NCBI RefSeq assembly: GCF_016026235.1
Contig: NZ_CP065613.1
DNA from: Escherichia coli
GTDB lineage: Bacteria > Pseudomonadota > Gammaproteobacteria > Enterobacterales > Enterobacteriaceae
Reading direction: 5' to 3' (one strand)
Length of the DNA: 64,000 nucleotides
Below the pieces are notes generated by a model that saw only the letters and a program-made list of their open reading frames with translations, ran no database searches and was not told the DNA's origin. This document shows, piece after piece, positions 398 through 64,000 of the stretch. The translations under genes were made by a program, and so were the position numbers. The number at the start of each line of letters is the position of its first letter. Position 1 is the stretch's first letter.

Positions 398-2428
398 ATG
401 AAACTCGCCGCCTGTTTTCTGACACTCCTTCCTGGCTTCGCCGTTGCCGCCAGCTGGACTTCTCCGGGGTTCCCTGCCTTTAGTGAACAGGGAACGGGAA
501 CATTTGTCAGCCACGCGCAGTTGCCCAAAGGTACGCGTCCACTAACGCTACATTTTGACCAACAGTGCTGGCAGCCTGCGGATGCGATAAAACTCAATCA
601 GATGCTTTCCCTGCAACCCTGTAGCAACACGCCGCCTCAATGGCGATTGTTCAGGGACGGCGAATATACGCTGCAAATAGACACCCGCTCCGGCACGCCA
701 ACATTGATGATTTCCATCCAGAACGCCGCCGAACCGGTAGCAAGCCAGGTCCGTGTATGCCCGAAATGGGATGGATTACCGCTCACGCTGGATGTCAGCG
801 CCACTTTCCCGGAAGGAGCCGCCGTACGGGATTATTACAGCCAGCAAATTGCGATAGTGAAGAACGGTCAAATAACGTTACAACCCGCTGCCACCAGCAA
901 CGGTTTACTCCTGCTGGAACGGGCAGAAACTGACGCCTCTGCCCCTTTCGACTGGCATAACGCCACGGTTTACTTTGTGCTGACAGATCGTTTCGAAAAC
1001 GGCGATCCCAGTAATGACCAGAGTTACGGACGTCATAAAGACGGTATGGCGGAAATTGGCACTTTTCACGGCGGCGATTTACGCGGCCTGACCAACAAAC
1101 TGGATTACCTCCAGCAGTTGGGCGTTAATGCTTTATGGATAAGCGCCCCATTTGAGCAAATTCACGGCTGGGTCGGCGGCGGTACAAAAGGCGATTTCCC
1201 GCATTATGCCTACCACGGTTATTACACACAGGACTGGACGAATCTTGATGCCAATATGGGCAACGAAGCCGATCTACGGACGCTGGTTGATAGCGCACAT
1301 CAGCGCGGTATTCGTATTCTCTTTGATGTCGTGATGAACCACACCGGCTATGCCACGCTGGCGGATATGCAGGAGTATCAGTTTGGCGCGTTATATCTTT
1401 CTGGTGACGAAGTGAAAAAAACGCTGGGTGAACGCTGGAGCGACTGGAAACCTGCCGCCGGGCAAACCTGGCATAGCTTTAACGATTACATTAATTTCAG
1501 CGACAAAACAGGCTGGGATAAATGGTGGGGAAAAAACTGGATCAGAACGGATATCGGCGATTACGACAATCCTGGATTTGACGATCTCACTATGTCGCTG
1601 GCCTTTTTGCCGGATATCAAAACCGAATCAACTACCGCTTCTGGTCTGCCGGTGTTCTATAAAAACAAAACGGATACTCACGCTAAAGTCATCGAAGGCT
1701 TTACACCTCGCGATTACTTAACCCACTGGTTAAGTCAGTGGGTCCGCGACTATGGGATTGATGGTTTTCGGGTCGATACCGCCAAACATGTTGAGTTGCC
1801 CGCCTGGCAGCAACTGAAAACCGAAGCCAGCGCCGCGCTTCGCGAATGGAAAAAAGCTAACCCCGACAAAGCATTAGATGACAAACCTTTCTGGATGACC
1901 GGTGAAGCCTGGGGCCACGGCGTGATGCAAAGTGACTACTATCGCCACGGCTTCGATGCGATGATCAATTTCGATTATCAGGAGCAGGCGGAGAAAGCTG
2001 TCGATTGTATTGCGCAGATGGATACGACCTGGCAGCAAATGGCGGAGAAATTGCAGGGTTTCAACGTGTTGAGCTACCTCTCGTCGCATGATACCCGTCT
2101 GTTCCGTGAAGGGGGCGACAAAGCAGCAGAGTTATTACTATTAGCGCCAGGCGCGGTACAAATCTTTTATGGCGATGAATCCTCGCGTCCGTTCGGTCCT
2201 ACAGGTTCTGATCCGCTGCAAGGTACACGTTCGGATATGAACTGGCAGGATGTTAGCGGTAAATCTGCCGCCAACGTCGCGCACTGGCAGAAAATCAGCC
2301 AGTTCCGCGCCCGCCATCCCGCAATTGGCGCGGGCAAACAAACGACACTTTCGCTGAAGCAGGGCTACGGCTTTGTTCGTGAGCATGGCGACGATAAAGT
2401 GCTGGTCATCTGGGCTGGGCAACAGTGA
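398..2428 (+). CDS. malS: Periplasmic alpha-amylase MalS
   Basis: 676-aa ORF with a signal peptide (MKLAACFLTLLPGFAVAAS) and GH13 alpha-amylase motifs (DVVMNHTG, GFRVDTAKH); length matches E. coli MalS. Confidence 0.9.
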   Translation: MKLAACFLTLLPGFAVAASWTSPGFPAFSEQGTGTFVSHAQLPKGTRPLTLHFDQQCWQPADAIKLNQMLSLQPCSNTPPQWRLFRDGEYTLQIDTRSGTPTLMISIQNAAEPVASQVRVCPKWDGLPLTLDVSATFPEGAAVRDYYSQQIAIVKNGQITLQPAATSNGLLLLERAETDASAPFDWHNATVYFVLTDRFENGDPSNDQSYGRHKDGMAEIGTFHGGDLRGLTNKLDYLQQLGVNALWISAPFEQIHGWVGGGTKGDFPHYAYHGYYTQDWTNLDANMGNEADLRTLVDSAHQRGIRILFDVVMNHTGYATLADMQEYQFGALYLSGDEVKKTLGERWSDWKPAAGQTWHSFNDYINFSDKTGWDKWWGKNWIRTDIGDYDNPGFDDLTMSLAFLPDIKTESTTASGLPVFYKNKTDTHAKVIEGFTPRDYLTHWLSQWVRDYGIDGFRVDTAKHVELPAWQQLKTEASAALREWKKANPDKALDDKPFWMTGEAWGHGVMQSDYYRHGFDAMINFDYQEQAEKAVDCIAQMDTTWQQMAEKLQGFNVLSYLSSHDTRLFREGGDKAAELLLLAPGAVQIFYGDESSRPFGPTGSDPLQGTRSDMNWQDVSGKSAANVAHWQKISQFRARHPAIGAGKQTTLSLKQGYGFVREHGDDKVLVIWAGQQ

Positions 2429-2605
2429 CTTTTCCGGCTTCCCGTTCGTCAGTACCTCGGGAAGCCGCCAACCAGGATAAAATGTCAGCCCTAATCAGCG
2501 TTGCAGGATAAAGCACCGCTCACTCTTCAACAGACCGATTTGCACCCCAGCAAATGTAGCGTTATTGTTACCTTCCTTGCTACAGAGTTCGACAGATATC
2601 CCGCT

Positions 2606-3859
2606 ATGACATTCTCCCTTTTTGGTGACAAATTTACCCGCCACTCCGGCATTACGCTGCTGATGGAAGATCTGAACGACGGTTTACGCACGCCTGGCGC
2701 GATTATGCTCGGCGGCGGTAATCCGGCGCAGATCCCGGAAATGCAGGACTACTTCCAGACGCTACTGACCGACATGCTGGAAAGTGGCAAAGCGACTGAT
2801 GCACTGTGCAATTACGACGGTCCACAGGGGAAAACGGAGCTACTCACACTGCTTGCCGGAATGCTGCGCGAGAAGTTGGGTTGGGATATCGAAGCACAGA
2901 ATATTGCACTAACAAACGGCAGCCAGAGCGCGTTTTTCTACTTATTTAATCTGTTTGCCGGACGCCGTGCCGATGGTCGGGTCAAAAAAGTGCTGTTCCC
3001 GCTGGCACCGGAATACATTGGCTACGCTGACGCCGGACTGGAAGAAGATCTGTTTGTCTCTGCGCGTCCGAATATTGAACTGCTGCCGGAAGGCCAGTTT
3101 AAATACCACGTCGATTTTGAGCATCTGCATATTGGCGAAGAAACCGGGATGATTTGCGTCTCCCGGCCGACGAATCCAACAGGCAATGTGATTACTGACG
3201 AAGAGTTGCTGAAGCTTGACGCGCTGGCGAATCAACACGGCATTCCGCTGGTGATTGATAACGCTTATGGCGTCCCGTTCCCGGGTATCATCTTCAGTGA
3301 AGCGCGCCCGCTATGGAATCCGAATATCGTGCTGTGCATGAGTCTTTCCAAGCTGGGGCTGCCTGGCTCCCGCTGCGGCATTATCATCGCCAATGAAAAA
3401 ATCATCACTGCCATCACCAATATGAACGGCATTATCAGCCTGGCACCTGGCGGTATTGGTCCGGCGATGATGTGTGAAATGATTAAGCGTAACGATCTGC
3501 TGCGCCTGTCTGAAACAGTCATCAAACCGTTTTACTACCAGCGTGTTCAGGAAACTATCGCCATCATTCGCCGCTATTTACCGGAAGATCGCTGCCTAAT
3601 TCATAAACCAGAAGGAGCCATTTTCCTCTGGCTATGGTTTAAGGATTTGCCCATTACGACCGAGCAACTCTACCAGCGCCTGAAAGCACGCGGCGTGCTG
3701 ATGGTGCCGGGGCACAACTTCTTCCCGGGACTGGATAAACCGTGGCCGCATACGCATCAATGTATGCGCATGAACTACGTACCAGAGCCGGAGAAAATTG
3801 AGGCGGGGGTGAAGATTCTGGCGGAAGAGATAGAAAGAGCCTGGGCTGAAAGTCACTAA
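2606..3859 (+). CDS. avtA: Valine-pyruvate aminotransferase (alanine-valine transaminase)
   Basis: The ORF-track ORF 2501..3859 has an unsupported 5' extension; the internal ATG at 2606 gives a 417-aa product starting MTFSLFGDKF, matching the AvtA N-terminus. Class I/II aminotransferase with the SLSKLG PLP-lysine motif. Confidence 0.9.
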   Translation: MTFSLFGDKFTRHSGITLLMEDLNDGLRTPGAIMLGGGNPAQIPEMQDYFQTLLTDMLESGKATDALCNYDGPQGKTELLTLLAGMLREKLGWDIEAQNIALTNGSQSAFFYLFNLFAGRRADGRVKKVLFPLAPEYIGYADAGLEEDLFVSARPNIELLPEGQFKYHVDFEHLHIGEETGMICVSRPTNPTGNVITDEELLKLDALANQHGIPLVIDNAYGVPFPGIIFSEARPLWNPNIVLCMSLSKLGLPGSRCGIIIANEKIITAITNMNGIISLAPGGIGPAMMCEMIKRNDLLRLSETVIKPFYYQRVQETIAIIRRYLPEDRCLIHKPEGAIFLWLWFKDLPITTEQLYQRLKARGVLMVPGHNFFPGLDKPWPHTHQCMRMNYVPEPEKIEAGVKILAEEIERAWAESH

Positions 3860-3862
3860 AAA

Positions 3863-3965
3863 TTGCCTGATGCGCTACGCTTATCAGGCCTACATAATTT
3901 CTGCAATATATTGAATTTGGAAGAATTTGTAGGCCGGATAAGGCGTTTACGCCGCATCTGGCATA
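3863..3965. repeat. REP/BIME palindromic units
   Basis: Inverted copies of the REP consensus (GCCTGATGCGCTACGCTTATCAGGCCTAC … GTAGGCCGGATAAGGCGTTTACGCCGCATC) downstream of avtA. Confidence 0.8.
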
Positions 3966-7178: not shown

Positions 7179-9158
7179 ATGAACATTTCGGAAGTCGATC
7201 TGCATAAACTGACGGTCAGCGATCCGTTCCTCGGTCAGTACCAACAACTGGTCCGCGACGTGGTGATTCCTTATCAGTGGGATGCCTTGAACGATCGTAT
7301 CCCAGAAGCGGAACCCAGCCATGCGATTGAAAACTTTCGCATTGCCGCCGGACTTCAGGAGGGTGAATTTTACGGGATGGTGTTTCAGGACAGCGACGTC
7401 GCCAAATGGCTGGAAGCGGTAGCCTGGTCGCTGTGCCAGAAGCCGGACGCCGAACTGGAAAAAACCGCCGACGAGGTAATCGAACTGATCGCCTCCGCCC
7501 AATGCGAAGACGGCTATCTCAATACTTACTTTACGGTAAAAGCACCCGAAGAACGCTGGAGCAATCTGGCGGAGTGTCATGAACTTTACTGCGCAGGTCA
7601 TCTGATTGAAGCCGGAGTCGCCTTCTTCCAGGCCACGGGAAAACGGCGCTTGCTGGGGGTCGTTTGCCGCCTGGCCGATCATATCGACAGCGTATTTGGT
7701 CCAGATGAAAGTAAGTTACACGGTTATCCTGGTCACCCGGAAATTGAACTGGCACTAATGCGCCTGTATGAAGTGACTGAAGAGCCGCGCTACCTGGCGC
7801 TGACGAACTATTTTGTCGAACAGCGTGGTGCGCAACCGCACTATTACGACCAGGAATATGAAAAGCGCGGGCAGACATCGCACTGGCACACCTACGGCCC
7901 GGCGTGGATGGTGAAAGACAAAGCCTACAGCCAGGCACATTTGCCCCTTGCGCAACAGCAAACCGCCATCGGTCACGCGGTACGTTTTGTCTATCTGATG
8001 ACCGGCGTCGCGCATCTCGCGCGTTTAAGTCACGATGACAGCAAGCGTCAGGACTGCCTGCGGCTGTGGAACAATATGGCCCAGCGTCAGTTATATATTA
8101 CCGGCGGCATTGGCTCGCAAAGCAGCGGCGAAGCGTTCACTAGCGATTACGATCTGCCGAATGACACGGTATACGCTGAAAGTTGCGCCTCCATCGGCCT
8201 GATGATGTTTGCCCGACGAATGCTGGAAATGGAAGGCGACAGTCAATATGCCGATGTGATGGAGCGCGCACTGTACAACACCGTGCTCGGCGGCATGGCG
8301 CTGGATGGCAAACATTTCTTCTATGTGAATCCGCTGGAAGTACATCCAAAATCGCTGAAATTCAACCATATCTACGATCACGTTAAACCGATCCGCCAGC
8401 GTTGGTTTGGCTGCGCTTGTTGTCCGCCAAATATCGCCCGCGTGCTGACCTCGATTGGTCATTATCTCTACACGCCGCGTGAAGATGCGTTGTATATCAA
8501 CATATACGCAGGAAACAGCATGGAAGTGCCGGTAGAAAATGGCACGCTGCGCCTGCGGGTTAGCGGGAACTATCCGTGGCAGGAGCAGGTGACGATTGCG
8601 GTTGAATCGCCCCAGCCGGTACGTCATACGCTGGCTTTACGTCTGCCGGACTGGTGCACACAGCCGCAGATCATATTGAATGGGGAAGAGGTCGAGCAGG
8701 ATATTCGTAAAGGGTATTTGCACATTACCCGCGAATGGCAGGAGGGCGATACGCTGAATCTGACTTTGCCGATGCCGGTACGCCGCGTTTACGGTAACCC
8801 GCTGGTGCGTCACGTCGCCGGAAAAGTGGCGATTCAGCGCGGCCCGCTGGTGTATTGCCTGGAACAGGCCGACAACGGCGAGTCACTGCATAATCTGTGG
8901 CTGCCCACCGATGCGCCATTTACGACATTTGAAGGCAAGGGATTGTTTAGCCATAAGATCTTAATCCAGGCACCGGGTTACCGGTATGAACAGAGCAATC
9001 CAGAGCAGCAACCGCTGTGGCATTACGACAGCGCGCCAGCCAAACGCCAGCCGCAAACTCTGACCTTTATCCCGTGGTTTAGCTGGGCTAACCGGGGCGA
9101 AGGCGAAATGCGGATCTGGGTGAATGAGGAAAAGCATCGCCATCCGGAGGTTGGATAA
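7179..9158 (+). CDS. Glycoside hydrolase family 127-like protein (DUF1680, beta-L-arabinofuranosidase family)
   Basis: A start at ATG 7179 is preceded by an AAGGAG RBS; the ORF-track start at 7155 overlaps the transporter stop. The 659-aa product contains a Cys-rich CACCPPN motif of the kind found in GH127 enzymes. Confidence 0.7.
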   Translation: MNISEVDLHKLTVSDPFLGQYQQLVRDVVIPYQWDALNDRIPEAEPSHAIENFRIAAGLQEGEFYGMVFQDSDVAKWLEAVAWSLCQKPDAELEKTADEVIELIASAQCEDGYLNTYFTVKAPEERWSNLAECHELYCAGHLIEAGVAFFQATGKRRLLGVVCRLADHIDSVFGPDESKLHGYPGHPEIELALMRLYEVTEEPRYLALTNYFVEQRGAQPHYYDQEYEKRGQTSHWHTYGPAWMVKDKAYSQAHLPLAQQQTAIGHAVRFVYLMTGVAHLARLSHDDSKRQDCLRLWNNMAQRQLYITGGIGSQSSGEAFTSDYDLPNDTVYAESCASIGLMMFARRMLEMEGDSQYADVMERALYNTVLGGMALDGKHFFYVNPLEVHPKSLKFNHIYDHVKPIRQRWFGCACCPPNIARVLTSIGHYLYTPREDALYINIYAGNSMEVPVENGTLRLRVSGNYPWQEQVTIAVESPQPVRHTLALRLPDWCTQPQIILNGEEVEQDIRKGYLHITREWQEGDTLNLTLPMPVRRVYGNPLVRHVAGKVAIQRGPLVYCLEQADNGESLHNLWLPTDAPFTTFEGKGLFSHKILIQAPGYRYEQSNPEQQPLWHYDSAPAKRQPQTLTFIPWFSWANRGEGEMRIWVNEEKHRHPEVG

Positions 9159-9262
9159 GGCGCTCGCGCCGCATCCAACGTAGGGAGCACATTGCCTGAT
9201 GCGACGCTTAATACGTCTTATCAGGCATACGAGTCGGTGCGAGAGCGTAGGCCAGCCGCACC
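9159..9262. repeat. REP-like palindromic units
   Basis: GCCTGATGCGACGCTTAATACGTCTTATCAGGCATAC and flanking GC-rich inverted repeats between the GH127-like gene and yiaT. Confidence 0.6.
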
Positions 9263-22213: not shown

Positions 22214-24121
22214 ATGTCATCCGATATTAAGATCAAAGTGCAAAGCTTTGGTCGTTTCCTCAGCAACATGGTGATGCCAAATATCGGCGCGTTTATCGCG
22301 TGGGGTATCATCACCGCGTTATTTATTCCAACAGGGTGGTTACCGAACGAGACGCTGGCGAAGCTGGTCGGGCCGATGATCACTTATCTCCTGCCGCTGC
22401 TGATCGGTTATACCGGTGGTAAGCTGGTAGGCGGCGAACGTGGCGGCGTAGTCGGTGCCATCACCACCATGGGCGTTATCGTCGGCGCAGACATGCCGAT
22501 GTTCCTCGGTTCTATGATTGCAGGTCCGCTGGGCGGCTGGTGCATTAAGCACTTCGACCGCTGGGTAGACGGTAAGATCAAATCCGGTTTTGAGATGCTG
22601 GTGAACAACTTCTCCGCAGGCATCATCGGGATGATCCTCGCCATTCTGGCATTTCTCGGCATTGGCCCGATTGTTGAAGCCCTGTCCAAAATGCTGGCTG
22701 CGGGCGTTAACTTCATGGTTGTCCATGACATGCTGCCGCTGGCGTCTATCTTTGTTGAACCGGCGAAAATCCTGTTCCTCAACAACGCCATTAACCACGG
22801 TATCTTCTCGCCGCTGGGTATTCAGCAGTCCCATGAACTGGGTAAATCCATATTCTTCCTGATTGAAGCTAACCCAGGTCCGGGTATGGGGGTGCTGCTG
22901 GCGTACATGTTCTTTGGTCGTGGTAGCGCTAAACAGTCTGCGGGCGGTGCGGCAATTATCCACTTCCTGGGTGGTATCCACGAAATTTACTTCCCGTATG
23001 TGTTGATGAATCCGCGTCTGATCCTGGCCGTTATCCTCGGCGGTATGACTGGCGTGTTCACGCTGACTATCCTGGGCGGTGGTCTGGTTTCTCCGGCATC
23101 TCCGGGTTCTATCCTTGCTGTACTGGCGATGACACCAAAAGGTGCTTATTTCGCTAACATCGCGGGTGTGTGTGCGGCGATGGCTGTCTCCTTTGTTGTC
23201 TCTGCTATTTTGCTGAAAACCAGCAAAGTGAAAGAAGAAGATGATATTGAAGCAGCAACTCGTCGTATGCAGGACATGAAAGCTGAGTCTAAAGGTGCAT
23301 CTCCGCTGTCTGCGGGCGATGTGACTAACGACCTGAGCCACGTACGTAAAATCATCGTTGCCTGTGACGCCGGTATGGGTTCAAGTGCGATGGGCGCAGG
23401 CGTGCTGCGTAAGAAAATTCAGGATGCAGGTCTGTCGCAGATTTCTGTTACTAACAGCGCGATCAACAACCTGCCGCCAGATGTGGACCTCGTCATCACT
23501 CACCGTGACCTGACCGAACGCGCTATGCGCCAGGTTCCGCAGGCACAGCATATTTCGCTGACCAACTTCCTCGACAGCGGCCTGTACACCAGCCTGACCG
23601 AACGTCTGGTTGCTGCCCAGCGCCATACTGAAAACGAAGTGAAAGTGAAAGTGAAAGACAGCTTTGACGATTCCAGTGCTAACCTGTTCAAACTGGGCGC
23701 GGAGAACATCTTCCTCGGTCGCAAAGCTGCCACCAAAGAAGAAGCGATTCGTTTTGCTGGCGAGCAGTTGGTGAAAGGCGGTTACGTTGAGCCGGAATAC
23801 GTTCAGGCGATGCTGGATCGTGAAAAACTGACCCCGACTTATCTGGGTGAGTCTATCGCGGTGCCACACGGTACGGTTGAAGCGAAAGATCGCGTACTGA
23901 AAACGGGCGTGGTGTTCTGCCAGTACCCGGAAGGCGTGCGCTTCGGTGAAGAAGAAGATGACATTGCCCGTCTGGTGATTGGTATTGCTGCCCGTAACAA
24001 CGAGCACATTCAGGTTATCACCAGCCTGACCAATGCACTGGATGATGAGTCCGTCATCGAGCGTCTGGCACACACCACCAGCGTGGATGAAGTGCTGGAA
24101 CTGCTGGCAGCTCGTAAGTAA
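22214..24121 (+). CDS. mtlA: PTS mannitol-specific EIICBA component
   Basis: 635-aa ORF starting [27 protein letters not shown]…, matching the MtlA N-terminus. Confidence 0.93.
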
Positions 24122-24149
24122 TCCAATCCCACCCTCTCCACATGGAGAA

Positions 24150-24265
<116 letters not shown>

Positions 24266-24350
24266 CCCCTCTCCTCACGGAGAGGGTTTGGGTGAGGGAA
24301 AAGCCTCACCCCAGCCCTCTCGGGTAAAAACATTGATGAAGGTTAATACT

Positions 24351-25499
24351 ATGAAAGCATTACATTTTGGCGCAGGTAATATCGGTCGTGGCTTTATCGG
24401 TAAACTGCTGGCAGACGCGGGTATACAACTGACGTTTGCCGATGTCAATCAGGTGGTACTTGATGCCCTGAATGCCCGTCATAGCTATCAGGTTCATGTG
24501 GTCGGTGAAACCGAGCAGGTAGATACCGTTTCTGGCGTCAATGCTGTCAGCAGCATTGGTGATGATGTCGTTGATCTCATTGCTCAGGTTGATTTAGTCA
24601 CTACCGCCGTTGGCCCGGTAGTGCTGGAACGTATTGCTCCGGCTATCGCCAAAGGGCTGGTGAAACGTAAAGAACAAGGTAATGAATCTCCGCTGAACAT
24701 CATCGCTTGTGAAAACATGGTCCGCGGCACCACGCAACTGAAAGGCCATGTGATGAACGCCCTGCCGGAAGACGCCAAAGCGTGGGTAGAAGAACACGTT
24801 GGCTTTGTCGATTCCGCCGTTGACCGCATCGTACCGCCTTCGGCTTCTGCAACTAACGATCCGCTGGAAGTGACGGTAGAAACCTTCAGCGAATGGATTG
24901 TCGATAAAACTCAGTTCAAAGGCGCACTGCCGAACATCCCAGGCATGGAGTTAACCGACAACCTGATGGCATTTGTCGAACGTAAACTCTTCACCCTGAA
25001 CACGGGTCATGCTATAACCGCGTACCTCGGAAAACTGGCCGGTCATCAGACCATTCGTGACGCGATTCTCGACGAGAAAATCCGCGCGGTGGTAAAAGGT
25101 GCGATGGAAGAAAGTGGTGCAGTATTGATCAAGCGCTACGGCTTTGACGCTGACAAGCATGCGGCGTACATCCAGAAAATCCTCGGCCGTTTTGAGAACC
25201 CGTATCTGAAAGATGATGTAGAGCGCGTAGGCCGTCAGCCGCTGCGTAAACTGAGCGCAGGCGACCGTCTGATCAAGCCACTGCTCGGTACGCTGGAATA
25301 CGGCCTCCCGTACAAAAATCTGATTCAGGGAATTGCCGCTGCAATGCACTTCCGCAGTGAAGATGATCCGCAGGCTCAGGAACTGGCAGCACTGATCGCC
25401 GACAAAGGTCCGCAGGCGGCGCTGGCACAGATTTCCGGGCTTGATGCCAACAGCGAGGTTGTATCTGAGGCGGTAACCGCTTATAAAGCAATGCAATAA
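24351..25499 (+). CDS. mtlD: Mannitol-1-phosphate 5-dehydrogenase
   Basis: The ORF-track ORF 24033..25499 reads through the REP region; the true start at ATG 24351 ([17 protein letters not shown], Rossmann motif) gives 382 aa. Confidence 0.9.
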
Positions 25500-34812: not shown

Positions 34813-35051
34813 TTACCAGACATCTCCCCCCACAAGAATTGGCCCTACCAATTCTTCGCTTATCTGACCTCTGGTTCACAATTCCCCAATTAAAACTCAC
34901 ATCAATGTTGCCAATACATAACATTTAGTTAACCATTCATTGTCATTATCCCTACACAACACAATTGGCAGTGCCACTTTTACACAACGTGTGACAAGTA
35001 GATGAGCAACAGACTCATTACACGATGTGCGTGGACTCCAGGAGACCTGCA

Positions 35052-36707
35052 ATGAATCTCTGGCAACAAAACTACGATCCCGCCGGGAATATCTGGCTTT
35101 CCAGTCTGATAGCATCGCTTCCCATCCTGTTTTTCTTCTTTGCGCTGATTAAGCTCAAACTGAAAGGATACGTCGCCGCTTCATGGACAGTGGCAATCGC
35201 CCTTGCCGTGGCTTTGCTGTTCTATAAAATGCCGGTCGCTAACGCGCTGGCCTCGGTGGTTTATGGCTTCTTCTATGGTTTGTGGCCCATCGCGTGGATC
35301 ATTATTGCAGCGGTGTTCGTCTATAAGATCTCGGTGAAAACCGGGCAGTTTGACATCATTCGCTCGTCAATTCTTTCGATAACCCCTGACCAGCGTCTGC
35401 AAATGCTGATCGTCGGTTTCTGTTTCGGCGCTTTCCTTGAAGGAGCCGCAGGCTTTGGCGCACCGGTAGCAATTACCGCCGCATTGCTGGTCGGTCTGGG
35501 CTTTAAACCGTTATACGCCGCCGGGCTGTGCCTGATTGTTAACACCGCGCCAGTGGCATTTGGTGCGATGGGCATTCCAATTCTGGTTGCCGGACAGGTA
35601 ACAGGCATCGACAGCTTTGAGATTGGCCAGATGGTGGGGCGTCAGCTACCGTTTATGACCATTATCGTGCTGTTCTGGATCATGGCGATTATGGACGGCT
35701 GGCGCGGTATCAAAGAGACGTGGCCTGCGGTCGTGGTTGCGGGCGGCTCGTTTGCCATCGCTCAGTACCTTAGCTCTAACTTCATTGGGCCGGAGCTGCC
35801 GGACATTATCTCTTCGCTGGTATCACTGCTCTGCCTGACGCTGTTCCTCAAACGCTGGCAGCCAGTGCGCGTATTCCGTTTTGGTGATTTGGGGGCGTCA
35901 CAGGTTGATATGACGCTGGCCCACACCGGTTACACTGCGGGTCAGGTGTTACGTGCCTGGACACCGTTCCTGTTCCTGACCGCTACCGTAACACTGTGGA
36001 GTATCCCGCCGTTTAAAGCCCTGTTCGCTTCGGGCGGCGCGCTTTATGAATGGGTGATCAACATTCCGGTGCCGTATCTCGACAAACTGGTTGCTCGTAT
36101 GCCGCCGGTCGTCAGCGAAGCTACCGCTTACGCCGCCGTATTTAAGTTTGACTGGTTCTCTGCCACCGGTACCGCCATTCTGTTTGCTGCGCTGCTCTCG
36201 GTTGTCTGGCTGAAGATGAAACCGTCTGACGCTATCAGCACCTTCGGCAGCACGCTGAAAGAACTGGCTCTGCCCATCTACTCCATCGGTATGGTGCTGG
36301 CATTCGCCTTTATTTCGAACTATTCCGGACTGTCATCAACACTGGCGCTGGCACTGGCGCACACCGGTCATGCATTCACCTTCTTCTCGCCGTTCCTCGG
36401 CTGGCTGGGGGTATTCCTGACCGGGTCGGATACCTCATCTAACGCCCTGTTCGCCGCGCTGCAAGCCACCGCAGCACAACAAATTGGCGTCTCTGATCTG
36501 TTGCTGGTTGCCGCCAATACCACCGGTGGCGTCACCGGTAAGATGATCTCCCCGCAATCTATCGCTATCGCCTGTGCGGCGGTAGGCCTGGTGGGCAAAG
36601 AGTCTGATTTGTTCCGCTTTACTGTCAAACACAGCCTGATCTTCACCTGTATGGTGGGCGTGATCACCACGCTTCAGGCCTATGTCTTAACGTGGATGAT
36701 TCCTTAA
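35052..36707 (+). CDS. lldP: L-lactate permease
   Basis: Start trimmed to [18 protein letters not shown]… (551 aa), matching LldP; multi-pass membrane protein. Confidence 0.9.
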
Positions 36708-55820: not shown

Positions 55821-56963
55821 TTATTCAAACCAATTATGAATAACCTCTTCGAATCTTTGAGTTACGCCATCCCAACTGTAGTGATTAAACACAAAGTCCT
55901 GACCTTGCTTTGCAACTGCTGTTAATTCAGGATTCGCTAACGTTTTTAAAATATCGCTGCTTATGGAGTCTGCAGTCATAGGTTCTTTTAAATGGAATCC
56001 CGTAGTATTTTCTTTGACAAATTCCGTCATCCCCCCACGCGTACTCACTAAAACAGGCTTACCAGCACCCATAGCTTCAATTGCCACCATGCAAAATGGT
56101 TCCTGGAACTGGGAAGGAATGACGACTAAATCTGCCAGTGGGTAATAACAATGCATCTTTTCAGGCGGTATGCTTCCTAACATAATGCAACGATCCTTCA
56201 AACGTTTTGCAATTTCCCTGACATTGCGTTGATATGCACCTTTGTCACTTTTACTCATTTCTGTATAATCACCAATCACAACTAATTTTAAATTTTTGTG
56301 AGCAGCGGCCAATTTTTCGAATGATTGCATCAACAGCAATATGCCTTTGTCAGGGACGATACGCCCAGCATAAAAAATAATTTTCTCTTCAGGGGAGATA
56401 TTAAGTTCGCTTCTAGTGATCGGCTGAAAATTAGATTGATAGGTTTCTAAATCAATTCCATTTGGTACAATCTCAATATCTGCATTTGCTAAATAAGATT
56501 GGTAATACTTTTTCAAGTATAAACTAGGCACTATCATTTTAACATTTTGCTCAAGCAATTTTGGTTCAAATGCATTATGCATATGTATAACCACTCTTGC
56601 CTGAGGAGCTCGCTTACGAATTTGAGTGTATAGCTTCATGCTATTATGAACTACAATAACACTTTCTTTCGTTATAGGAAAATCATGTGCAATATTCAAT
56701 ATTCTCTGTGAATATGGAAGAGGATCAAGTCTTGTCCATTTTTGAAATAACCGCTTATATATGCGACTGAATCCAACCCTATGAATACTACAATTATCAT
56801 TAACAAAGGTGTAATTTGAGTATCCTGGATTTTTGATACAAACAATACGATTTGGAAAATTGGTACGCTGAGCAACCTGATACATCCACGTTTCAACAGC
56901 AGCCGCTCCGCGAGGAGGAATTGAAAAAATAGGAGTAACCGTAAATATTATTTTATCAACCAT
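55821..56963 (-). CDS. waaD: GT4-family LPS outer-core glycosyltransferase (WaaD/WaaK-like)
   Basis: 380-aa ORF with a GT4 C-terminal motif (…FQEPFCMVAIEAMGAGKPVLVSTRGGMTEFV); the symbol is inferred from R3-type gene order only. Confidence 0.6.
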   Translation of the reverse strand: MVDKIIFTVTPIFSIPPRGAAAVETWMYQVAQRTNFPNRIVCIKNPGYSNYTFVNDNCSIHRVGFSRIYKRLFQKWTRLDPLPYSQRILNIAHDFPITKESVIVVHNSMKLYTQIRKRAPQARVVIHMHNAFEPKLLEQNVKMIVPSLYLKKYYQSYLANADIEIVPNGIDLETYQSNFQPITRSELNISPEEKIIFYAGRIVPDKGILLLMQSFEKLAAAHKNLKLVVIGDYTEMSKSDKGAYQRNVREIAKRLKDRCIMLGSIPPEKMHCYYPLADLVVIPSQFQEPFCMVAIEAMGAGKPVLVSTRGGMTEFVKENTTGFHLKEPMTADSISSDILKTLANPELTAVAKQGQDFVFNHYSWDGVTQRFEEVIHNWFE

Positions 56964-56971
56964 CTCGTATA

Positions 56972-57985
56972 TTAACCTTTCATAACATTATATTTAATTG
57001 CTGTAAAAACACCATCGAGAAATTTTTTCTGGTAAAGCAAGTGTTTATATTTTTCTTTGTACTCATGTTTTTTAACAGCTTTTTTATAAGGTATATTTCT
57101 CCATGGTGATATATTATAAATATTACGAAAATAATCTGCAGAGGCGTAGTTCGCCCAATCATGCCATGGCTTAGTTATACCAGTATAATGTATGAAGACA
57201 GTGTCATCATTAATAAACCGGGTGTAATATTCACTATTTTTTTCTTCAAATTCTGACTTTATAGTATAAATACAATTATATTTTCTCGGTAATATTTTAG
57301 CATGATGTAGAAACATTAAGTTTAAAATATCTTGATCCGGGTACTTTAATTTTTTTATAATTGACTCATCTGATAATAGATCAAAGAATTTTTCCGTTAG
57401 TCTTTGTTTTAACCATTCCCGTAAATTAATATACATTACACCAGAGTTAAAATAGCTACCGTTAAAATCCTCATTACACAAACGCTCAGCGCTTTTACTT
57501 TGCATAGCATCTACATCAATTACCACTGCCCCATATTCATCTTTAAACTCTAATGCTATTAACTCGTTCAATGAACCCTTACAGACGATATCAGCATCAA
57601 GATATAATAATGAATCCAATCGCGCAGAAAAATAATCAAATGAAAGCAAACGATAATAAATAGATACTGGCCAGATATTTGATTGAGGTAGCGCCTTCAA
57701 TGGCTCAGAATCAATATGATATAATTTAATTACTGTTTGATACTTCGTTGCTAATTGTGATAATAATTCAATATACTCTTTGTCTAAGTAATCAGCGATT
57801 ATGTGAAAGGTAAATTTGTTTTGTTTATTATTTTCAAGAATTGAAGCAATTGAAATCGCAGCCCCAACCTGGTAGTTCTCATCAATACCCCATGAGACAT
57901 TAAACGTTTCCCGTTCATCAAGTTTAACGGGGCGCTTGTCCAGTTCAATTATATCTTTAAATTGAGTAAGATGTTTAAAATCCAA
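56972..57985 (-). CDS. waaJ: GT8-family LPS outer-core glycosyltransferase (WaaJ-like)
   Basis: 337-aa ORF of the GT8 family (DxD-containing), paralogous to 58743..59750; symbol by gene order. Confidence 0.6.
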   Translation of the reverse strand: MDFKHLTQFKDIIELDKRPVKLDERETFNVSWGIDENYQVGAAISIASILENNKQNKFTFHIIADYLDKEYIELLSQLATKYQTVIKLYHIDSEPLKALPQSNIWPVSIYYRLLSFDYFSARLDSLLYLDADIVCKGSLNELIALEFKDEYGAVVIDVDAMQSKSAERLCNEDFNGSYFNSGVMYINLREWLKQRLTEKFFDLLSDESIIKKLKYPDQDILNLMFLHHAKILPRKYNCIYTIKSEFEEKNSEYYTRFINDDTVFIHYTGITKPWHDWANYASADYFRNIYNISPWRNIPYKKAVKKHEYKEKYKHLLYQKKFLDGVFTAIKYNVMKG

Positions 57986-58009
57986 TTTAATTACCCTTCA
58001 TCATAATCA

Positions 58010-58717
58010 TTATTTGCTCTTCAATCCTAGTTTGACTTTTACATCCCTGATTACTTTTTTAATTTTCTTTTTGAATATAAGATATGTATAGCCAAAGTCT
58101 TTCAATTCATTTTTTATATTATAGTGCCGTTCAAGATCAATGCGATCTTTTGCTTTTAAAACAGCGGTTGTTTTTTTACCTGAAAGGTCAATTAGTCTTA
58201 AACCTTTTTCGGATACTATAAAATTTCCTTTATGAGGATCGCCAGACACCATTCCATGCTGATGCAACTCTTTTATCGATTCTGATAATTGATCCTTCAG
58301 ATCTTCAGAAATTTCCAAATACTCATTTAACCCGACACCTTCAATATACTCAATGAGCATAATATAATAATGAGCGAAATTTAATGTTTTACGTTCAGCT
58401 AGCAAAAAATAGTCATTAATTGATTGGATGCCTTCACCACGTACCCGATCGGTTTGATAAATTAAATTTTCATAATAATCTTTTTTTATGCAAGATTTTA
58501 AGAAACGTTCGGTCATTTTATGCTTTGGCGCATAAACTTTAAGTACAAGAGGTCCACGAGCAGTGTCAATAAGAATGACTTTAGTATCATCAATAGAACG
58601 AAAAACTTTTAATGTTTTAACCCTGCAAGTTAAAAAGTCATTTAGAACTTGCTCATAAAAGGGATCATTATCTTTTATGAAAACTTTCAACCCATTTATC
58701 GTTTTATTATATATCAT
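58010..58717 (-). CDS. waaY: LPS core heptose(II) kinase
   Basis: 235-aa kinase-like ORF (…HQHGMVSGDPHKGNFIV…) between two GT8 genes. Confidence 0.75.
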   Translation of the reverse strand: MIYNKTINGLKVFIKDNDPFYEQVLNDFLTCRVKTLKVFRSIDDTKVILIDTARGPLVLKVYAPKHKMTERFLKSCIKKDYYENLIYQTDRVRGEGIQSINDYFLLAERKTLNFAHYYIMLIEYIEGVGLNEYLEISEDLKDQLSESIKELHQHGMVSGDPHKGNFIVSEKGLRLIDLSGKKTTAVLKAKDRIDLERHYNIKNELKDFGYTYLIFKKKIKKVIRDVKVKLGLKSK

Positions 58718-58742
58718 AATGAATTATTTTAACCTTAAATCT

Positions 58743-59750
58743 TTAGAAGCATTTTTCTTTATAATACTTTAAATAATTAAAAATGCCTGCCATATAATGC
58801 TTTTGTTTAAATTTATGTTTTGCACAATACCGATACTGATTGCTATTTACAGGTTTAAGTAAATCTTCTTTACTCCACGGAGAAGCTGCTTTGGCGATCA
58901 AAAAACTACGTGACACCGGATAGTCAGCCCACTCATGCCAGGGTTTTGTAGGTCCCACATAGTGTATAAACACGGTGTCATCATTGACTGGATTATCAAC
59001 TTTGTCTTTTAATTCATAGTTAATACTATATCGGGTATTATATTTCTCCGAAATAAACTTCACTTTACCATTCAATAATACATTCAGTACATCTTGATCA
59101 AGGTGGGTGATTTTACTTACCCAATCTGGGTCACGCAACATTTCAATAGCTTTTGACGAAATATTATTTAGATTCCACTCATCAATATTTATCAGTAAAA
59201 AACCAGCATTGAAATATCCAGAAGCTAACTGTGGTGTAGTTAATACCGAGGCTCGATTTTGCCACCATTCAACATCTCTTTCAGCTACAACTGCGGCAAT
59301 TTCATTAGTAGAAAATTGATAATCTAAGAGTTCTTTAATACTACCCTTGCAAGCAATATCTGCATCAAGATATAGTATTTTTTCATGTTTATGATAGAAA
59401 TAATCTGCAATTATAAATCGAAAATATGTTGCGTAAGTCCAGTTTTTCGTGCTTGGTAATGACTTCAGCTTATCACAATTGATAACATAAATATTAATTC
59501 TTGAATTATATTGTTTTGCCAAATCAGAAAAATATAATTTGTCTTTATCACTGATATAATCTGTGAAAACATGAAATTCACAAGAGATTTCTCTATTGTT
59601 TAATAGAATAGATGCGATGGCTACACCACATCCAAAAAGAAAATTTCTGTCAATACCAAATGCTATATCAAGAGTATTTTTAGATCTTATATTTTGATAA
59701 TGAAAATTATACTCAAAAAGGATGATGTCACTATCATTGAGTTGAGACAT
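58743..59750 (-). CDS. waaI: GT8-family LPS outer-core glycosyltransferase (WaaI/WaaO-like)
   Basis: 335-aa ORF of the GT8 family; symbol by R3-type gene order. Confidence 0.6.
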   Translation of the reverse strand: MSQLNDSDIILFEYNFHYQNIRSKNTLDIAFGIDRNFLFGCGVAIASILLNNREISCEFHVFTDYISDKDKLYFSDLAKQYNSRINIYVINCDKLKSLPSTKNWTYATYFRFIIADYFYHKHEKILYLDADIACKGSIKELLDYQFSTNEIAAVVAERDVEWWQNRASVLTTPQLASGYFNAGFLLINIDEWNLNNISSKAIEMLRDPDWVSKITHLDQDVLNVLLNGKVKFISEKYNTRYSINYELKDKVDNPVNDDTVFIHYVGPTKPWHEWADYPVSRSFLIAKAASPWSKEDLLKPVNSNQYRYCAKHKFKQKHYMAGIFNYLKYYKEKCF

Positions 59751-59792
59751 ATTTATTCTGTATCCAAAATTTTGGCAAAAATAAGTTACGGG

Positions 59793-60599
59793 TTACAACG
59801 ATTTTCGAATCGTTCTTTCCCTGATTTTTGTGGCTTTTGCTTCTGCTTGCGACAGCAGTCCTTGTTCCTGCTTGAGAATGTCTTTAAGCGGGGCGGCAAA
59901 ATACACCTTCATAAAGCGCCAGATATCCCGCTGAGTCAGGCCAATATTCATTGAAGAAAAATAAAGCCCTATAAGATCTTTATCGCGCCAACGACGTGGA
60001 ACGCGCGTGCGAAGCTGCGCCCGGTGTAGGTCAATTACCGAAATTTTTAACTCCTCTTCCTTACCGGAAAAAGGCAAGTGCAGCAGGAAATGACAGATAT
60101 AACAGTCACGATGGTTAATGCCCGCAGCATGCATATCGCGCACCATCGTCGCGACACGCTTAATAAGCATACGCTTTACGCGAACATCTGGTGGGTTGGT
60201 CGCCCAGTCAGCACAGTAATCTTCCAGACTGATGGTTGGTGTCAGATCTTCGGTAATAATAAACGAGGTTCTGGTCAGCGGATTCATGCCTTTTTCGCCG
60301 AATGCCACCCCATACATAGTATCAACGCCGACATCCCGCAGTCGATGAATCGCATTCCATTCGCGGTCTGCGCCTAATACTGGCATCCGCAATGAGAGTA
60401 AATTTTTGATTATCTCTTTCAGGGTCGTGCCGCGATGCCATTTGAGAAAATAGCTTTTGCCCGCCATTTCAAAGCGCAGAGTACGGCGAGTTTCCAGTTC
60501 ACGAAATACCTCACCCTGCAAGGTTTTAACTTCCTCAAAAGGATCTTTGCCGCGCCATAACGTGGCAAACGGCTCTTTAAGTTCAACCATCCAGACCAC
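59793..60599 (-). CDS. waaP: LPS core heptose(I) kinase
   Basis: 268-aa ORF starting [33 protein letters not shown]…, matching WaaP. Confidence 0.9.
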
Positions 60600-61707
60600 C
60601 CGTTATGATATCCGCCGCTTTCTCTGGCAGACTGTATAAATCTTGTGTATCAGCATAATGTCGCGCATTTTCCGCCCAAGCCTGGCGCAATGAAGATTGC
60701 GTTAACGCTTTGCGTAAAATCTCATTCAATGTTTCCTGGCGGAATGGCTCAGCAATAGCCTCGCCGCAATTAGCGTCGACAATATAATGCGCATAGCCAC
60801 AAACGGCAGTTGTTAGTACCGGTAATCCTGCAGTAATCGCTTCCAGCAGCACAATTCCCGCCGCTTCCTGGTAGGCAGGATGCAGTAATAAATCCGCCGC
60901 CGCCATTAATTCCGAGACATCGTTGCGCCCCGAGAAGAAGTGAACATTACTGCGCACGCCGCGTTTTTCTGCCAGTGCCTCAAATTTTCGCGGTTTATCC
61001 TGCCCAACAACATATAGCAATGTGTTGTGGCGCAGCGAATCCGGTAACGAAGCAAGTGCTTCAATGGAACGATCGACACCTTTACGCGTGAAGTCTGAAC
61101 CGACCTGCAACAATAAATATTGTTGTTCGGTTATTCCATTCTTCTTACGGAAGATTTCACGGCTATTGGCTGGCTGCTGGCTATATTTACGATCAGGATA
61201 AATCCCCGGTGGCAGAATATGAAAACGCTCCGCTTCAGTCTGATAATGTTTCTGGAAATCGGCGATTTGCTTATCTGTCAGCATCAGCAGCTGTGTCGGC
61301 TTGCCCTGTTCGAAGGTTGCCCGCTCAAAGGCGGCATAATGGCGATAACGTGACGTCAGGCGATAGAAAAAGCCTTTTTCCTGCGCTACTTTCTCGGCAT
61401 AACAAACATCAGCGGCATAATAAACGTCCAGCCCCGGCATTTTGTTGAATCCAACGACTTTATCGACGGGATGTTCGCGTAAATGTTTTTGCACCCAGGC
61501 AAAATACTCCGCATTGCGCCCGTGATTGGTATGCGATTTAACCGGCACTTTGATCAGTTCAAATACATCAGGGCATTCGCCTTCCCACGACTGGGTATAA
61601 ACCCGAACATGATGACCTCGGGCGGCGACTGTCTGAGCAATACGCATAAAATCGCGCTGCAAACCGCCAAAGGGAAAATATTTATATAAACAAAAAGCAA
61701 CGATCAT
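60583..61707 (-). CDS. waaG: LPS core glucosyltransferase I
   Basis: 374-aa GT4 ORF starting [24 protein letters not shown]…, matching WaaG. Confidence 0.9.
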
Positions 61708-62762
61708 AACGACGTACCTGTCGTGGAGGAGGGCAGTAATTTATCGACAGCAGCAATGACATCTGCCGCCGGAATAACCGAAAGATACATCTCATTTCGG
61801 TCACGCTGATCGCGCGTTGGCATTTCCCGGTAATCTCCCGCCCAGAATTGAATCATGTTATTTGACCAGGGACGCCAGAAAATATGGTCTGTCGCACCAA
61901 ACAGCGATATCAGCGGCGTATTAACTGCAGCGGCAATATGCGCCGGTGCGGAATCAACGCCAATAAACAGCTGCGCATGATCGATTAACGCACCAAGTTC
62001 CGGGAAGGTCACCTTTCCAGCCAGCGCCGTTACTGGTAGCGTCTGGCATCCCTGCGCAATTTCATTGACGCAGGCCAGATCGTCTTTATCTGGGCCGGAC
62101 GTCAGAACAACTTCATAACCACGAGCATGTAAGGCATCAATCACAGCGGAAAACTTGGCGTTGTCCCAGCATTTGAAGATTTGCCGCGCCGTAGGTTGGA
62201 TAACCACATAATTTTGTCCAACACCAGCGTGATCAAGTTCGCAACGCATACGTTTCCAGCTTGCAGGCGGGTAACTCATGGTTGTCTGCTTCACCAACGA
62301 ATCAACTCCCAATGGGGTCAGCACGGATAAGTTACTTTCCACCACATTTCCACCCTGCAACGGCACCAAATGGGTGAAACTTTTACGCCAAAAAGCAGAC
62401 TGCCGATGATGATAATCCTGGGAAATTTTCACACGGGCATTTAATAAGCGAACCAGTATAGCAACCATCCATTGATCGGTGAGATTGACGATAAGGTCAT
62501 ACTTATTGGCACGTAATACCTTGATGAGATGAAAAAAGTTGGCAATTTTTTCTGAGGCTTTTGCTTTTTTATTTTTTATGCCGTAGAGCGCGTTAATCTC
62601 TGGATTTTCAGACAGGATCGGGATGGTGTCCTGATAAAGCAGCACATCGATTTTTGCGTCAGGGTAATTTTTTTTCAGCGAACTAATGACGGGAGTAGTT
62701 AATAACATATCCCCATGAAAACGCATCTTAATGAGCAAAATTCTTCGAAATGGCTTATCCAC
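61704..62762 (-). CDS. waaQ: LPS heptosyltransferase III
   Basis: 352-aa GT9 ORF; first gene of the divergent waaQ operon. Confidence 0.85.
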   Translation of the reverse strand: MDKPFRRILLIKMRFHGDMLLTTPVISSLKKNYPDAKIDVLLYQDTIPILSENPEINALYGIKNKKAKASEKIANFFHLIKVLRANKYDLIVNLTDQWMVAILVRLLNARVKISQDYHHRQSAFWRKSFTHLVPLQGGNVVESNLSVLTPLGVDSLVKQTTMSYPPASWKRMRCELDHAGVGQNYVVIQPTARQIFKCWDNAKFSAVIDALHARGYEVVLTSGPDKDDLACVNEIAQGCQTLPVTALAGKVTFPELGALIDHAQLFIGVDSAPAHIAAAVNTPLISLFGATDHIFWRPWSNNMIQFWAGDYREMPTRDQRDRNEMYLSVIPAADVIAAVDKLLPSSTTGTSL

Positions 62763-62811
62763 AAGTAACTCTTTTTGTTGAGATTATCCGATTAAGGTGA
62801 AGCAGAAAAAG

Positions 62812-62823
62812 CACGCTACCGCC
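62812..62823 (-). promoter_or_regulatory. ops element (RfaH recruitment site, part of JUMPStart) in the waaQ leader
   Basis: The plus strand reads CACGCTACCGCC, the reverse complement of the ops consensus GGCGGTAGCGTG, about 50 bp upstream of the waaQ start codon on the waaQ strand. Confidence 0.8.
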
Positions 62824-63173
62824 CCAGGCTCAACAGCTACCTGAATACTGATACCGCACTGATATTGACGCGCTAGTGTATCACTTCTTTCGCGGCAATC
62901 CGACCCGAATGATTTTTAAGCACATTGTTGATTTTCAATAAAGAAATCAATCAAATAAAATCATTAGCAACCATATTCTTTCACTGTTGCTCTGCGATTC
63001 CTTCCTGCACGTACAGCAGAAATCAATGAATCGCATAAAAATACAAAAAAAGTATAGATGTTCAGCAAGAATTGGCGGGTAAATTGCTATTTAAGTCAAA
63101 AACGGGAAAAGTAATGGTAAAGCCACAGCTAAATACATAGAATCCCCAGCACATCCATAAGTCAGCTATTTAC

Positions 63174-64000
63174 TATGCTCGAATTGCTTTACACCGCCCT
63201 TCTCTACCTTATTCAGCCGCTGATCTGGATACGGCTCTGGGTGCGCGGACGTAAGGCTCCGGCCTATCGAAAACGCTGGGGTGAACGTTACGGTTTTTAC
63301 CGCCATCCGCTAAAACCAGGCGGCATTATGCTGCACTCCGTCTCCGTCGGTGAAACTCTGGCGGCGATCCCGTTGGTGCGCGCGCTGCGTCATCGTTATC
63401 CTGATTTACCGATTACCGTAACAACCATGACGCCAACCGGTTCGGAGCGCGTACAATCGGCTTTCGGGAAGGATGTTCAGCACGTTTATCTGCCGTATGA
63501 TCTGCCCGATGCACTCAACCGTTTCCTGAATAAAGTCGACCCTAAACTGGTGTTGATTATGGAAACCGAACTATGGCCTAACCTGATTGCGGCGCTACAT
63601 AAACGTAAAATTCCGCTGGTGATCGCTAACGCGCGACTCTCTGCCCGCTCGGCCGCAGGTTATGCCAAACTGGGTAAATTCGTCCGTCGCTTGCTGCGTC
63701 GTATTACGCTGATTGCCGCCCAAAATGAAGAAGATGGTGCACGTTTTGTGGCGCTGGGCGCAAAAAATAACCAGGTAACCGTTACCGGTAGCCTGAAATT
63801 CGATATTTCTGTAACACCGCAGTTGGCTGCTAAAGCCGTGACGCTGCGCCGCCAGTGGGCACCACACCGCCCGGTATGGATTGCCACCAGCACTCACGAA
63901 GGTGAAGAGAGCGTGGTCATTGCCGCACATCAGGCTTTATTACAGCAATTCCCTAATTTATTGCTCATCCTGGTACCCCGTCATCCAGAACGCTTCCCGG
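63174..64000 (+). CDS. waaA: Kdo transferase (3-deoxy-D-manno-octulosonic acid transferase), 5' part; runs off the window
   Basis: Open frame from ATG 63174 reads MLELLYTALLYLIQPLIWIRLWVRGRKAPAYRKRWGERYGF…, matching the WaaA/KdtA N-terminus; no stop before the window end, so it is absent from the ORF track. Confidence 0.85.

Follow-up and report, generated by a model that had tools for sequence, protein, structure and literature searches.

The spacer between waaQ and waaA in the stretch of E. coli DNA analyzed here (64 kb in total, hereafter referred to as the window) contains a well-known site at which, with a probability of approximately 95%, RfaH is recruited to the LPS core (waaQ/rfaQ) operon of E. 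coli. This feature is already known as the rfaQ/waaQ ops-JUMPstart and has been annotated also as rirA. An RfaH ChIP-seq signal has been found on rfa in strain CFT073; in K-12, two operons recruit RfaH, and rfaQ/waaG is given as one of its known targets (PMC9765446). Regulation of the waa operon by RfaH has likewise been described (PMC5449661), and loss of rfaH results in a truncated LPS core, as covered in reviews (PMC6358824). The functional evidence on RfaH at the waa operon comes from K-12 and CFT073. A sequence-only reading of the window had proposed RfaH-dependent antitermination of the long waaQ operon, and this proposal is supported by the presence of a full JUMPstart element, the conservation of the leader in other genomes and the published K-12 and CFT073 data. 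Nothing in the sequence argues against recruitment of RfaH at this site.

The ops 12-mer GGCGGTAGCGTG is found at 62812–62823 on the minus strand, which is the sense strand of waaQ, and this copy is the only exact one in the window, as the sequence-only reading had reported. The exact 12-mer was recovered in 0 of 100 dinucleotide-preserving shuffles of the window. That reading had also suggested a scan with a JUMPstart/ops model, and cmscan returns a full-length match to Rfam RF01707 (62812–62850, minus strand; model positions 1–38 of 38) that scores 55.2 bits, compared with a gathering score of 35, with an E value of 6.4e-10 over the entire window. Structural and functional work on RfaH has used an ops12 oligonucleotide whose sequence, GGCGGTAGCGTG, is identical to the window copy (PMC5995543). 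The same study indicates that RfaH recruitment needs the ops bases G4, G5, A7, and G8, and describes the requirement for a T11-G12 dinucleotide. The window copy follows the ops sequence rule GGCGGTAGnnTG with the central G4 G5 T6 A7 G8 intact, and it ends in CGTG, such that the pause-inducing T11-G12 dinucleotide is present. Downstream of the promoter and ahead of the first gene of a long operon, the element occupies a part of the 5' leader that is transcribed and not translated, with the start site placed by homology. It is found 51 nt past a conserved extended -10 sequence and 49 nt before the GTG start codon of waaQ (previously estimated as about 50 bp), a distance that becomes 85 nt if the internal ATG of the MG1655 annotation is used instead. 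Two further GGCGGTAG 8-mers are present in the window, at 24601–24608 (minus strand) and 36578–36585 (plus strand), giving 3 in total compared with 1.3 expected by chance. Both are located inside long ORFs (24033–25499 and 35025–36707) and lack the CGTG tail and a JUMPstart context; consequently, they were rejected as ops sites and taken as chance occurrences. Elsewhere in the window, gathering-level Rfam matches were also observed for naRNA4 (RF02564, 63.3 bits; 9149–9227, plus strand) and ES036 (RF02751, 50.3 bits; 3886–3928, minus strand).

Features of the waaQ-waaA region. Coordinates are those of the window; a dot marks a feature without strand.
Feature	Coordinates	Strand	Details
ops element	62812..62823	-	12 nt; waaQ leader, non-template (sense) strand; positions +46 to +57 from the predicted start
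JUMPstart element (RF01707)	62812..62850	-	39 nt; its 3' end is ops
JUMPstart hairpin	62825..62843	-	Rfam consensus structure: 5' arm CAGGU 62839–62843, 9-nt loop, 3' arm GCCUG 62825–62829
T-run right after ops (GCTTTTTC)	62806..62810	-	Kept in most waaQ leaders
rirA homologue	62797..62868	-	72 nt, compared with 73 nt in K-12; 5' part of the waaQ mRNA; 62868 is the predicted transcription start
waaQ promoter, putative extended -10	62875..62883	-	TG 62882–62883 and TACACT 62875–62880
Candidate waaQ -35, TCGGAT	62898..62903	-	17-nt spacer to the putative -10; poor match to the sigma-70 consensus, yet conserved
waaQ translation start	62760..62773	-	Weak Shine-Dalgarno-like AAGAG 62769–62773, 6-nt spacer, GTG 62760–62762
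waaQ operon	55821..62762	-	7 tightly packed same-strand genes, approximately 6.9 kb, with small gaps or overlaps
waaQ operon genes, in order		-	rfaQ, waaG, rfaP, waaO, rfaY, GT8 glycosyltransferase, GlcNAc transferase; names from the annotation of the O157:H7 record
waaQ-waaA divergent control region	62763..63174	.	412 bp, 38% GC
Near-invariant block adjoining waaA	63104..63174	+	Candidate promoter: -35 TGGTAA 63115–63120, 17-nt spacer, -10 TAGAAT 63138–63143
waaA (Kdo transferase) CDS	63175..64000	+	ATG 63175–63177; runs off the end of the window; annotation of a 100%-identical record

The 5' end of the waaQ transcript can be approximated from an annotated small RNA. The MG1655 genome (NC_000913.3) carries the ncRNA gene rirA (b4760), which is 73 nt long (3808166..3808238, minus strand) and lies on the waaQ strand. 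Reviews place RirA in the 5' UTR of waaQ, where it contains ops/JUMPstart and binds RfaH (PMC6358824, PMC5736990, PMC8745692), and report one start site for both RirA and the waaQ mRNA (PMC5736990, PMC8745692). Reviews citing Klein et al. 2016 further report that over-expression of RirA mimics an rfaH deletion and that its binding to RfaH with RNAP is ops-dependent (PMC6358824, PMC5736990, PMC8745692). The details of RirA and of the promoter given here are drawn from these reviews and from the MG1655 annotation. Alignment of the MG1655 gene with the window reveals approximately 5 substitutions and one missing T, none of which is located in JUMPstart or ops. The annotated 5' end of rirA maps to position 62868, which is 7 nt past the conserved TACACT and coincides with the +1 predicted from the extended -10 promoter, and its last base maps to 62797, so that the homologous segment ends 9 nt beyond the T-run. 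Because the rirA 5' end maps to 62868 and because RirA and the waaQ mRNA share their start, the waaQ 5' UTR would be approximately 106 nt long, with +1 near 62868 and ops at +46 to +57. The annotation of this leader as an sRNA was absent from the sequence-only reading.

Conservation and the MG1655 rirA annotation together suggest that the waaQ promoter is located at 62875–62903, just beyond JUMPstart. In an alignment of 27 leaders from approximately 20 genera, the -10 hexamer is invariant or nearly so at its T/A positions, as are the TG before it and the TCGG at 62900–62903. The near-invariant columns of this alignment comprise the TCGG, the TG, TAcAcT, JUMPstart with ops, the T-run after ops, AAGAG, and GTG. 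A generic sigma-70 and terminator scan of 62650–63250 returned 2 promoter-like matches compared with 1.7 expected, missed both the conserved extended -10 and the sites on the waaA side, and called no intrinsic terminator in this interval; because of the missed promoter, it was not counted as evidence.

The waaQ ORF spans 61704–62762 on the minus strand and begins with GTG, which is also the start used by RefSeq/PGAP in a 100%-identical O157:H7 record. The MG1655 annotation instead begins waaQ at an internal ATG (344 aa), with the PGAP GTG located 36 nt upstream (62726–62762 of the window, minus strand). The GTG is the better start call, because it is invariant in 53/53 orthologues and because the 12 codons that lead from it to the internal Met show conservation at the protein level (VEKPFRKILVIK), with the third codon position approximately twice as variable as the first two. 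The AAGAG at 62769–62773 is nearly invariant across waaQ leaders, and the combination of GTG with this weak sequence agrees with published descriptions of RfaH-controlled operons as having no canonical ribosome-binding site. The final 17.3 kb of the window are collinear with, and 99.2% identical to, an annotated O157:H7 record (BLAST), and the waa cluster of the window is O157-like.

Within E. coli, the region is almost universally present. Over 501 bp surrounding the spacer, the window matches E. coli O157:H7, W, 042, and numerous further strains at 100% identity, and the spacer region was found in 5424 of the 5426 complete E. coli genomes, the other 2 being without it. The same number of genomes (5424/5426) match an 86-nt leader query running from the -10 to ops at 90% identity or higher. 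One of the 5436 spacer-matching places in E. coli genomes is located in a record labelled as a plasmid. At least three E. coli spacer alleles can be distinguished (the window type, the K-12 type and a third type), which are approximately 80% identical overall; the window type accounts for 4432 records at 99% or more. Comparison of these alleles, including the K-12 leader with which the sequence-only reading had proposed a comparison, shows that 38 of 39 JUMPstart positions are identical. Conservation of the spacer is a mosaic, in which a near-invariant island of approximately 115 nt containing the promoter, JUMPstart, and ops is accompanied by approximately 100 bp of freely diverged sequence in the middle of the spacer.

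The leader was also compared across other Enterobacterales, using a scan with the WaaQ protein in one genome per species that provided 71 usable loci. The exact GGCGGTAG is present in 46/71 waaQ leaders and the exact 12-mer in 45/71. Ops-positive genera include Escherichia, Salmonella, Citrobacter, Kluyvera, Silvania, Pluralibacter, Pseudocitrobacter, Kosakonia, Shimwellia, Leminorella, Cedecea, Buttiauxella, and Intestinirhabdus, among others. The sequence-only reading had named absence of the motif from orthologous leaders as evidence that would speak against it; the motif is instead conserved in the three E. coli alleles and in 46 of these 71 loci. None of the 46 positive leaders deviates at the central bases G4–G8, ops and GTG lie 34–50 nt apart (43–50 nt in 39/46), and a TGnTAnAnT sequence is found upstream of ops in every ops-positive leader, at a distance of 48–53 nt in 42/47.

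The remaining 25 of the 71 loci have no ops directly upstream of waaQ, indicating that the ops-before-waaQ arrangement is not universal in Enterobacterales. These exceptions are informative, not contradictory. In 4 of them (Brenneria, Superficieibacter), ops is located one gene upstream: Brenneria has a perfect ops/JUMPstart approximately 1.45 kb upstream of waaQ (L062 1010–1048, L068 256–267), and 2/3 loci of the Superficieibacter group have a one-mismatch ops approximately 1.3 kb upstream (L063 1169–1205, L065 ~1210). The single intervening gene encodes 385–452 aa in these loci; the head of the operon differs, and ops still leads the operon. No ops was found within 2.5 kb in Providencia, Moellerella, Arsenophonus, and Hartigia. 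Siccibacter (L018 and L037, upstream of 2501) has an unrelated leader without ops in which a similar TGGTACAAT motif (-10), AAGAG, and GTG are kept. Decayed copies of ops are present in Kluyvera intermedia (AGCGGTAGCGTA; L012 2445–2456) and in K. cryocrescens (AGCAGTAGCGTA; L073 ~2445–2456), the latter including a change at G4 (G4A). Substitution of G4, the base changed in K. cryocrescens, abolished RfaH recruitment in vitro (PMC5995543). The decay or absence of ops in the two Kluyvera species and Siccibacter may represent lineage-specific loss of RfaH control.

Taken together with published work on RfaH, these features suggest how the leader would function. Transcription would start at the conserved extended -10 promoter, with +1 near 62868, and RNA polymerase would reach ops after approximately 56 nt. 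The later steps have been established by published work on this element: ops is a consensus pause (PMC5995543), and the polymerase pauses at U11, exposing the non-template ops bases as a small hairpin; autoinhibited RfaH binds both this hairpin and the paused polymerase. The C-terminal domain of RfaH refolds into a β-barrel, and RfaH remains on the elongation complex, where it excludes NusG and suppresses both pausing and Rho-dependent termination. RfaH is also described as able to tether a ribosome, via protein S10, to an mRNA whose start site is weak. In the waaQ leader, where the GTG preceded by AAGAG is 49 nt downstream of ops, these steps would lead to full-length expression of the seven-gene operon of approximately 6.9 kb.

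Several other explanations for the conserved leader were weighed against RfaH recruitment. That the 12-mer is a functionless chance occurrence has next to no probability: the element was not reproduced in the 100 shuffles, the JUMPstart covariance-model match has an E value of 6.4e-10, and the element occupies a fixed position across genera, such that chance occurrence is refuted by the conservation data. It is very unlikely that ops acts solely as a strong consensus class II backtracking pause that synchronizes transcription with translation of the weak GTG, with RfaH being inessential at the waaQ operon. The spacing of 43–50 nt between ops and GTG that is held in most genera speaks for such a pause; however, an RfaH ChIP signal on rfa and LPS phenotypes of rfaH mutants have been published, and the central G4–G8 bases, which are invariant in the 46 positive leaders, are dispensable for pausing and required for RfaH binding (PMC5995543).

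Two further explanations assign the conservation to RNA. The main role of the leader could be to encode RirA as a trans-acting sRNA, a decoy that titrates RfaH; in that case, ops would be kept as part of this RNA and not because it acts in cis as DNA. We consider this rather unlikely, while noting that MG1655 rirA is annotated exactly at the waaQ leader, that the ops-dependent binding of RirA to RfaH with RNAP and the effect of its over-expression described in the reviews would fit a decoy, and that the T-run and approximately 15 nt past ops are fairly conserved as well. A cis role of ops stays compatible with all of these points, however, and the RirA effects have been described under over-expression. 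Additionally, the single-sequence fold of the whole leader is no better than that of shuffles (z = 0.78). The same ops/JUMPstart heads other RfaH-controlled operons (rfb, kps, hly), for which we know of no described RirA. Furthermore, RfaH has been described as being recruited by contacting the non-template strand of the DNA (PMC5995543). Alternatively, JUMPstart could be a structured cis-regulatory RNA that acts via its 5-bp hairpin independently of or besides RfaH loading, for example by giving the nascent RNA a shape suited to ribosome loading or processing. This would be in keeping with its classification in Rfam as a cis-regulatory RNA with a hairpin and with the alignment of 27 leaders, in which 99.2% of the stem cells are paired; all 12 variant cells are one-sided and wobble-compatible (G-U/A-U or U-G/C-G switches), so that pairing is kept, compared with 4–62% pairing when the partner is slid. 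In these 27 leaders, however, no stem pair has changed on both sides in a compensatory manner, and the shuffle control carries no information, as the shuffles equal the observed values. Recognition at the DNA level could explain the conserved primary sequence just as well, and the mutational work in PMC5995543 concerned the 12 ops bases only. The hairpin data neither prove nor disprove a role of JUMPstart at the RNA level, and we regard an action through the hairpin as improbable. Recruitment of RfaH by ops is the preferred explanation for the leader.

The spacing of promoter, ops, and start codon that is kept in most of the 46 orthologous leaders (approximately 20 genera) raises a separate question concerning the architecture of the leader. 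Tentatively, and against the odds in our estimation, the waaQ leader might be a rigid module whose geometry matters, composed of the extended -10, 48–53 nt, ops, 43–50 nt, the weak AAGAG, and the invariant GTG. If so, loading of an RfaH-tethered ribosome on waaQ would need a fixed spacing between ops and the start codon, and K. cryocrescens (G4A), K. intermedia, and Siccibacter would have rewired their LPS-core expression to be RfaH-independent.

The waaA side of the spacer has also been analyzed. The sequence-only reading had given the spacer as 410 bp (62763–63173); this is corrected to 412 bp (62763–63174), since the waaA ATG occupies 63175–63177. The AT-richness that was claimed for the remainder of the spacer is borne out, as the spacer is 38% GC compared with 49% for the window, and the waaA-proximal 254 bp (62921–63174) are 34% GC; JUMPstart is 59% GC. 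Spacer length is approximately 385–412 bp in most of the genera examined, and a divergent waaA was detected by tblastn in 48/71 waaQ loci. The spacer was also predicted to hold both divergent promoters, and it appears to do so, with the conserved extended -10 promoter for waaQ (62875–62903) on one side and a near-invariant block before waaA on the other. In this block (63104–63174), most columns are 90–100% identical across the window, K-12, and a further 19 species; positions 63123–63129 form a variable gap of 7 nt. This pattern would fit a waaA promoter followed by a short leader of approximately 25 nt. The near-invariance of approximately 70 bp before the waaA ATG exceeds the needs of a minimal promoter. 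No conserved RNA structure was found in the block (consensus fold -0.86 kcal/mol), and it has no Rfam match. A mini-ORF at 63114–63140 (MVKPQLNT) was rejected as coding, as the variable columns at 63123–63129 show no codon periodicity and fit a promoter spacer better. Sigma-32 and sigma-E promoters upstream of waaA were likewise rejected, as matches to their consensus sequences, judged by eye, are poor.

Two other observations were made in the spacer. A second, more weakly conserved AT-rich block, TCAATGAATCGCATAAAAATACAAAAAAAG, is located mid-spacer at 63023–63050 and is identical in the three E. coli alleles, which differ around it; this block could be a site for a regulator or a nucleoid protein, or a second promoter. 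In E. coli strain E2 (NZ_CP104509.1; L004 ~1718–3100), an IS4-like ISVsa5 element interrupts the waaQ-waaA spacer at approximately window position 62918/62919. This places it approximately 15 bp upstream of the waaQ -35, and the waaQ promoter is cut off from the remaining control region.

The importance of the ops site is that it explains the full-length expression of the outer-core LPS genes of E. coli, and with it outer-membrane integrity, resistance to detergents and antibiotics, and virulence; this is textbook knowledge. For annotation, the value of the analysis is that the spacer can be labelled with ops/JUMPstart, the rirA homologue, the waaQ promoter, and a waaQ GTG start that differs from that of MG1655. 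The points that are mildly new are comparative only, and consist of the fixed promoter-ops-GTG geometry, the few lineages with a decayed or missing ops, and the unexpectedly strong conservation of approximately 70 bp before waaA.

The window site can be compared with several known systems. Within the ops/RfaH regulon of E. coli and Salmonella, which includes the rfaQ/waaQ, rfb, kps, hly, and tra leaders, it is the rfaQ member. The site shares the identical 12 nt on the sense strand, the placement in a 5' leader before a long cell-envelope operon and the TG pause dinucleotide, and differs in nothing of substance; the window has the majority E. coli spacer allele (O157/W/042-like), whereas the K-12 allele differs outside of JUMPstart and ops. 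Similar to the JUMPstart family (RF01707), which it matches at full length above the gathering score, the element retains the GGTAGC...GGCGGTAGC repeat and the 5-bp hairpin, with a loop that is one nucleotide longer than the Rfam consensus. The homologue of MG1655 RirA (b4760) has the same locus, promoter and inferred 5' end, is approximately 92% identical over 73 nt and has ops and JUMPstart inside; in contrast to the MG1655 RNA, it is 72 nt long owing to one T fewer in the T-run, has approximately 5 substitutions outside of JUMPstart, and is known here by homology. More distantly, the site resembles lambda nut/N, put of HK022, Q-binding sites and the systems of other NusG paralogues (LoaP), in that a signal in the leader produces a termination-resistant RNA polymerase for a long operon. 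The nut and put sites are RNA elements, and Q uses a promoter-proximal DNA site. In contrast to these other antiterminator sites, ops is read as non-template DNA by the NusG paralogue RfaH, as described in the RfaH papers.
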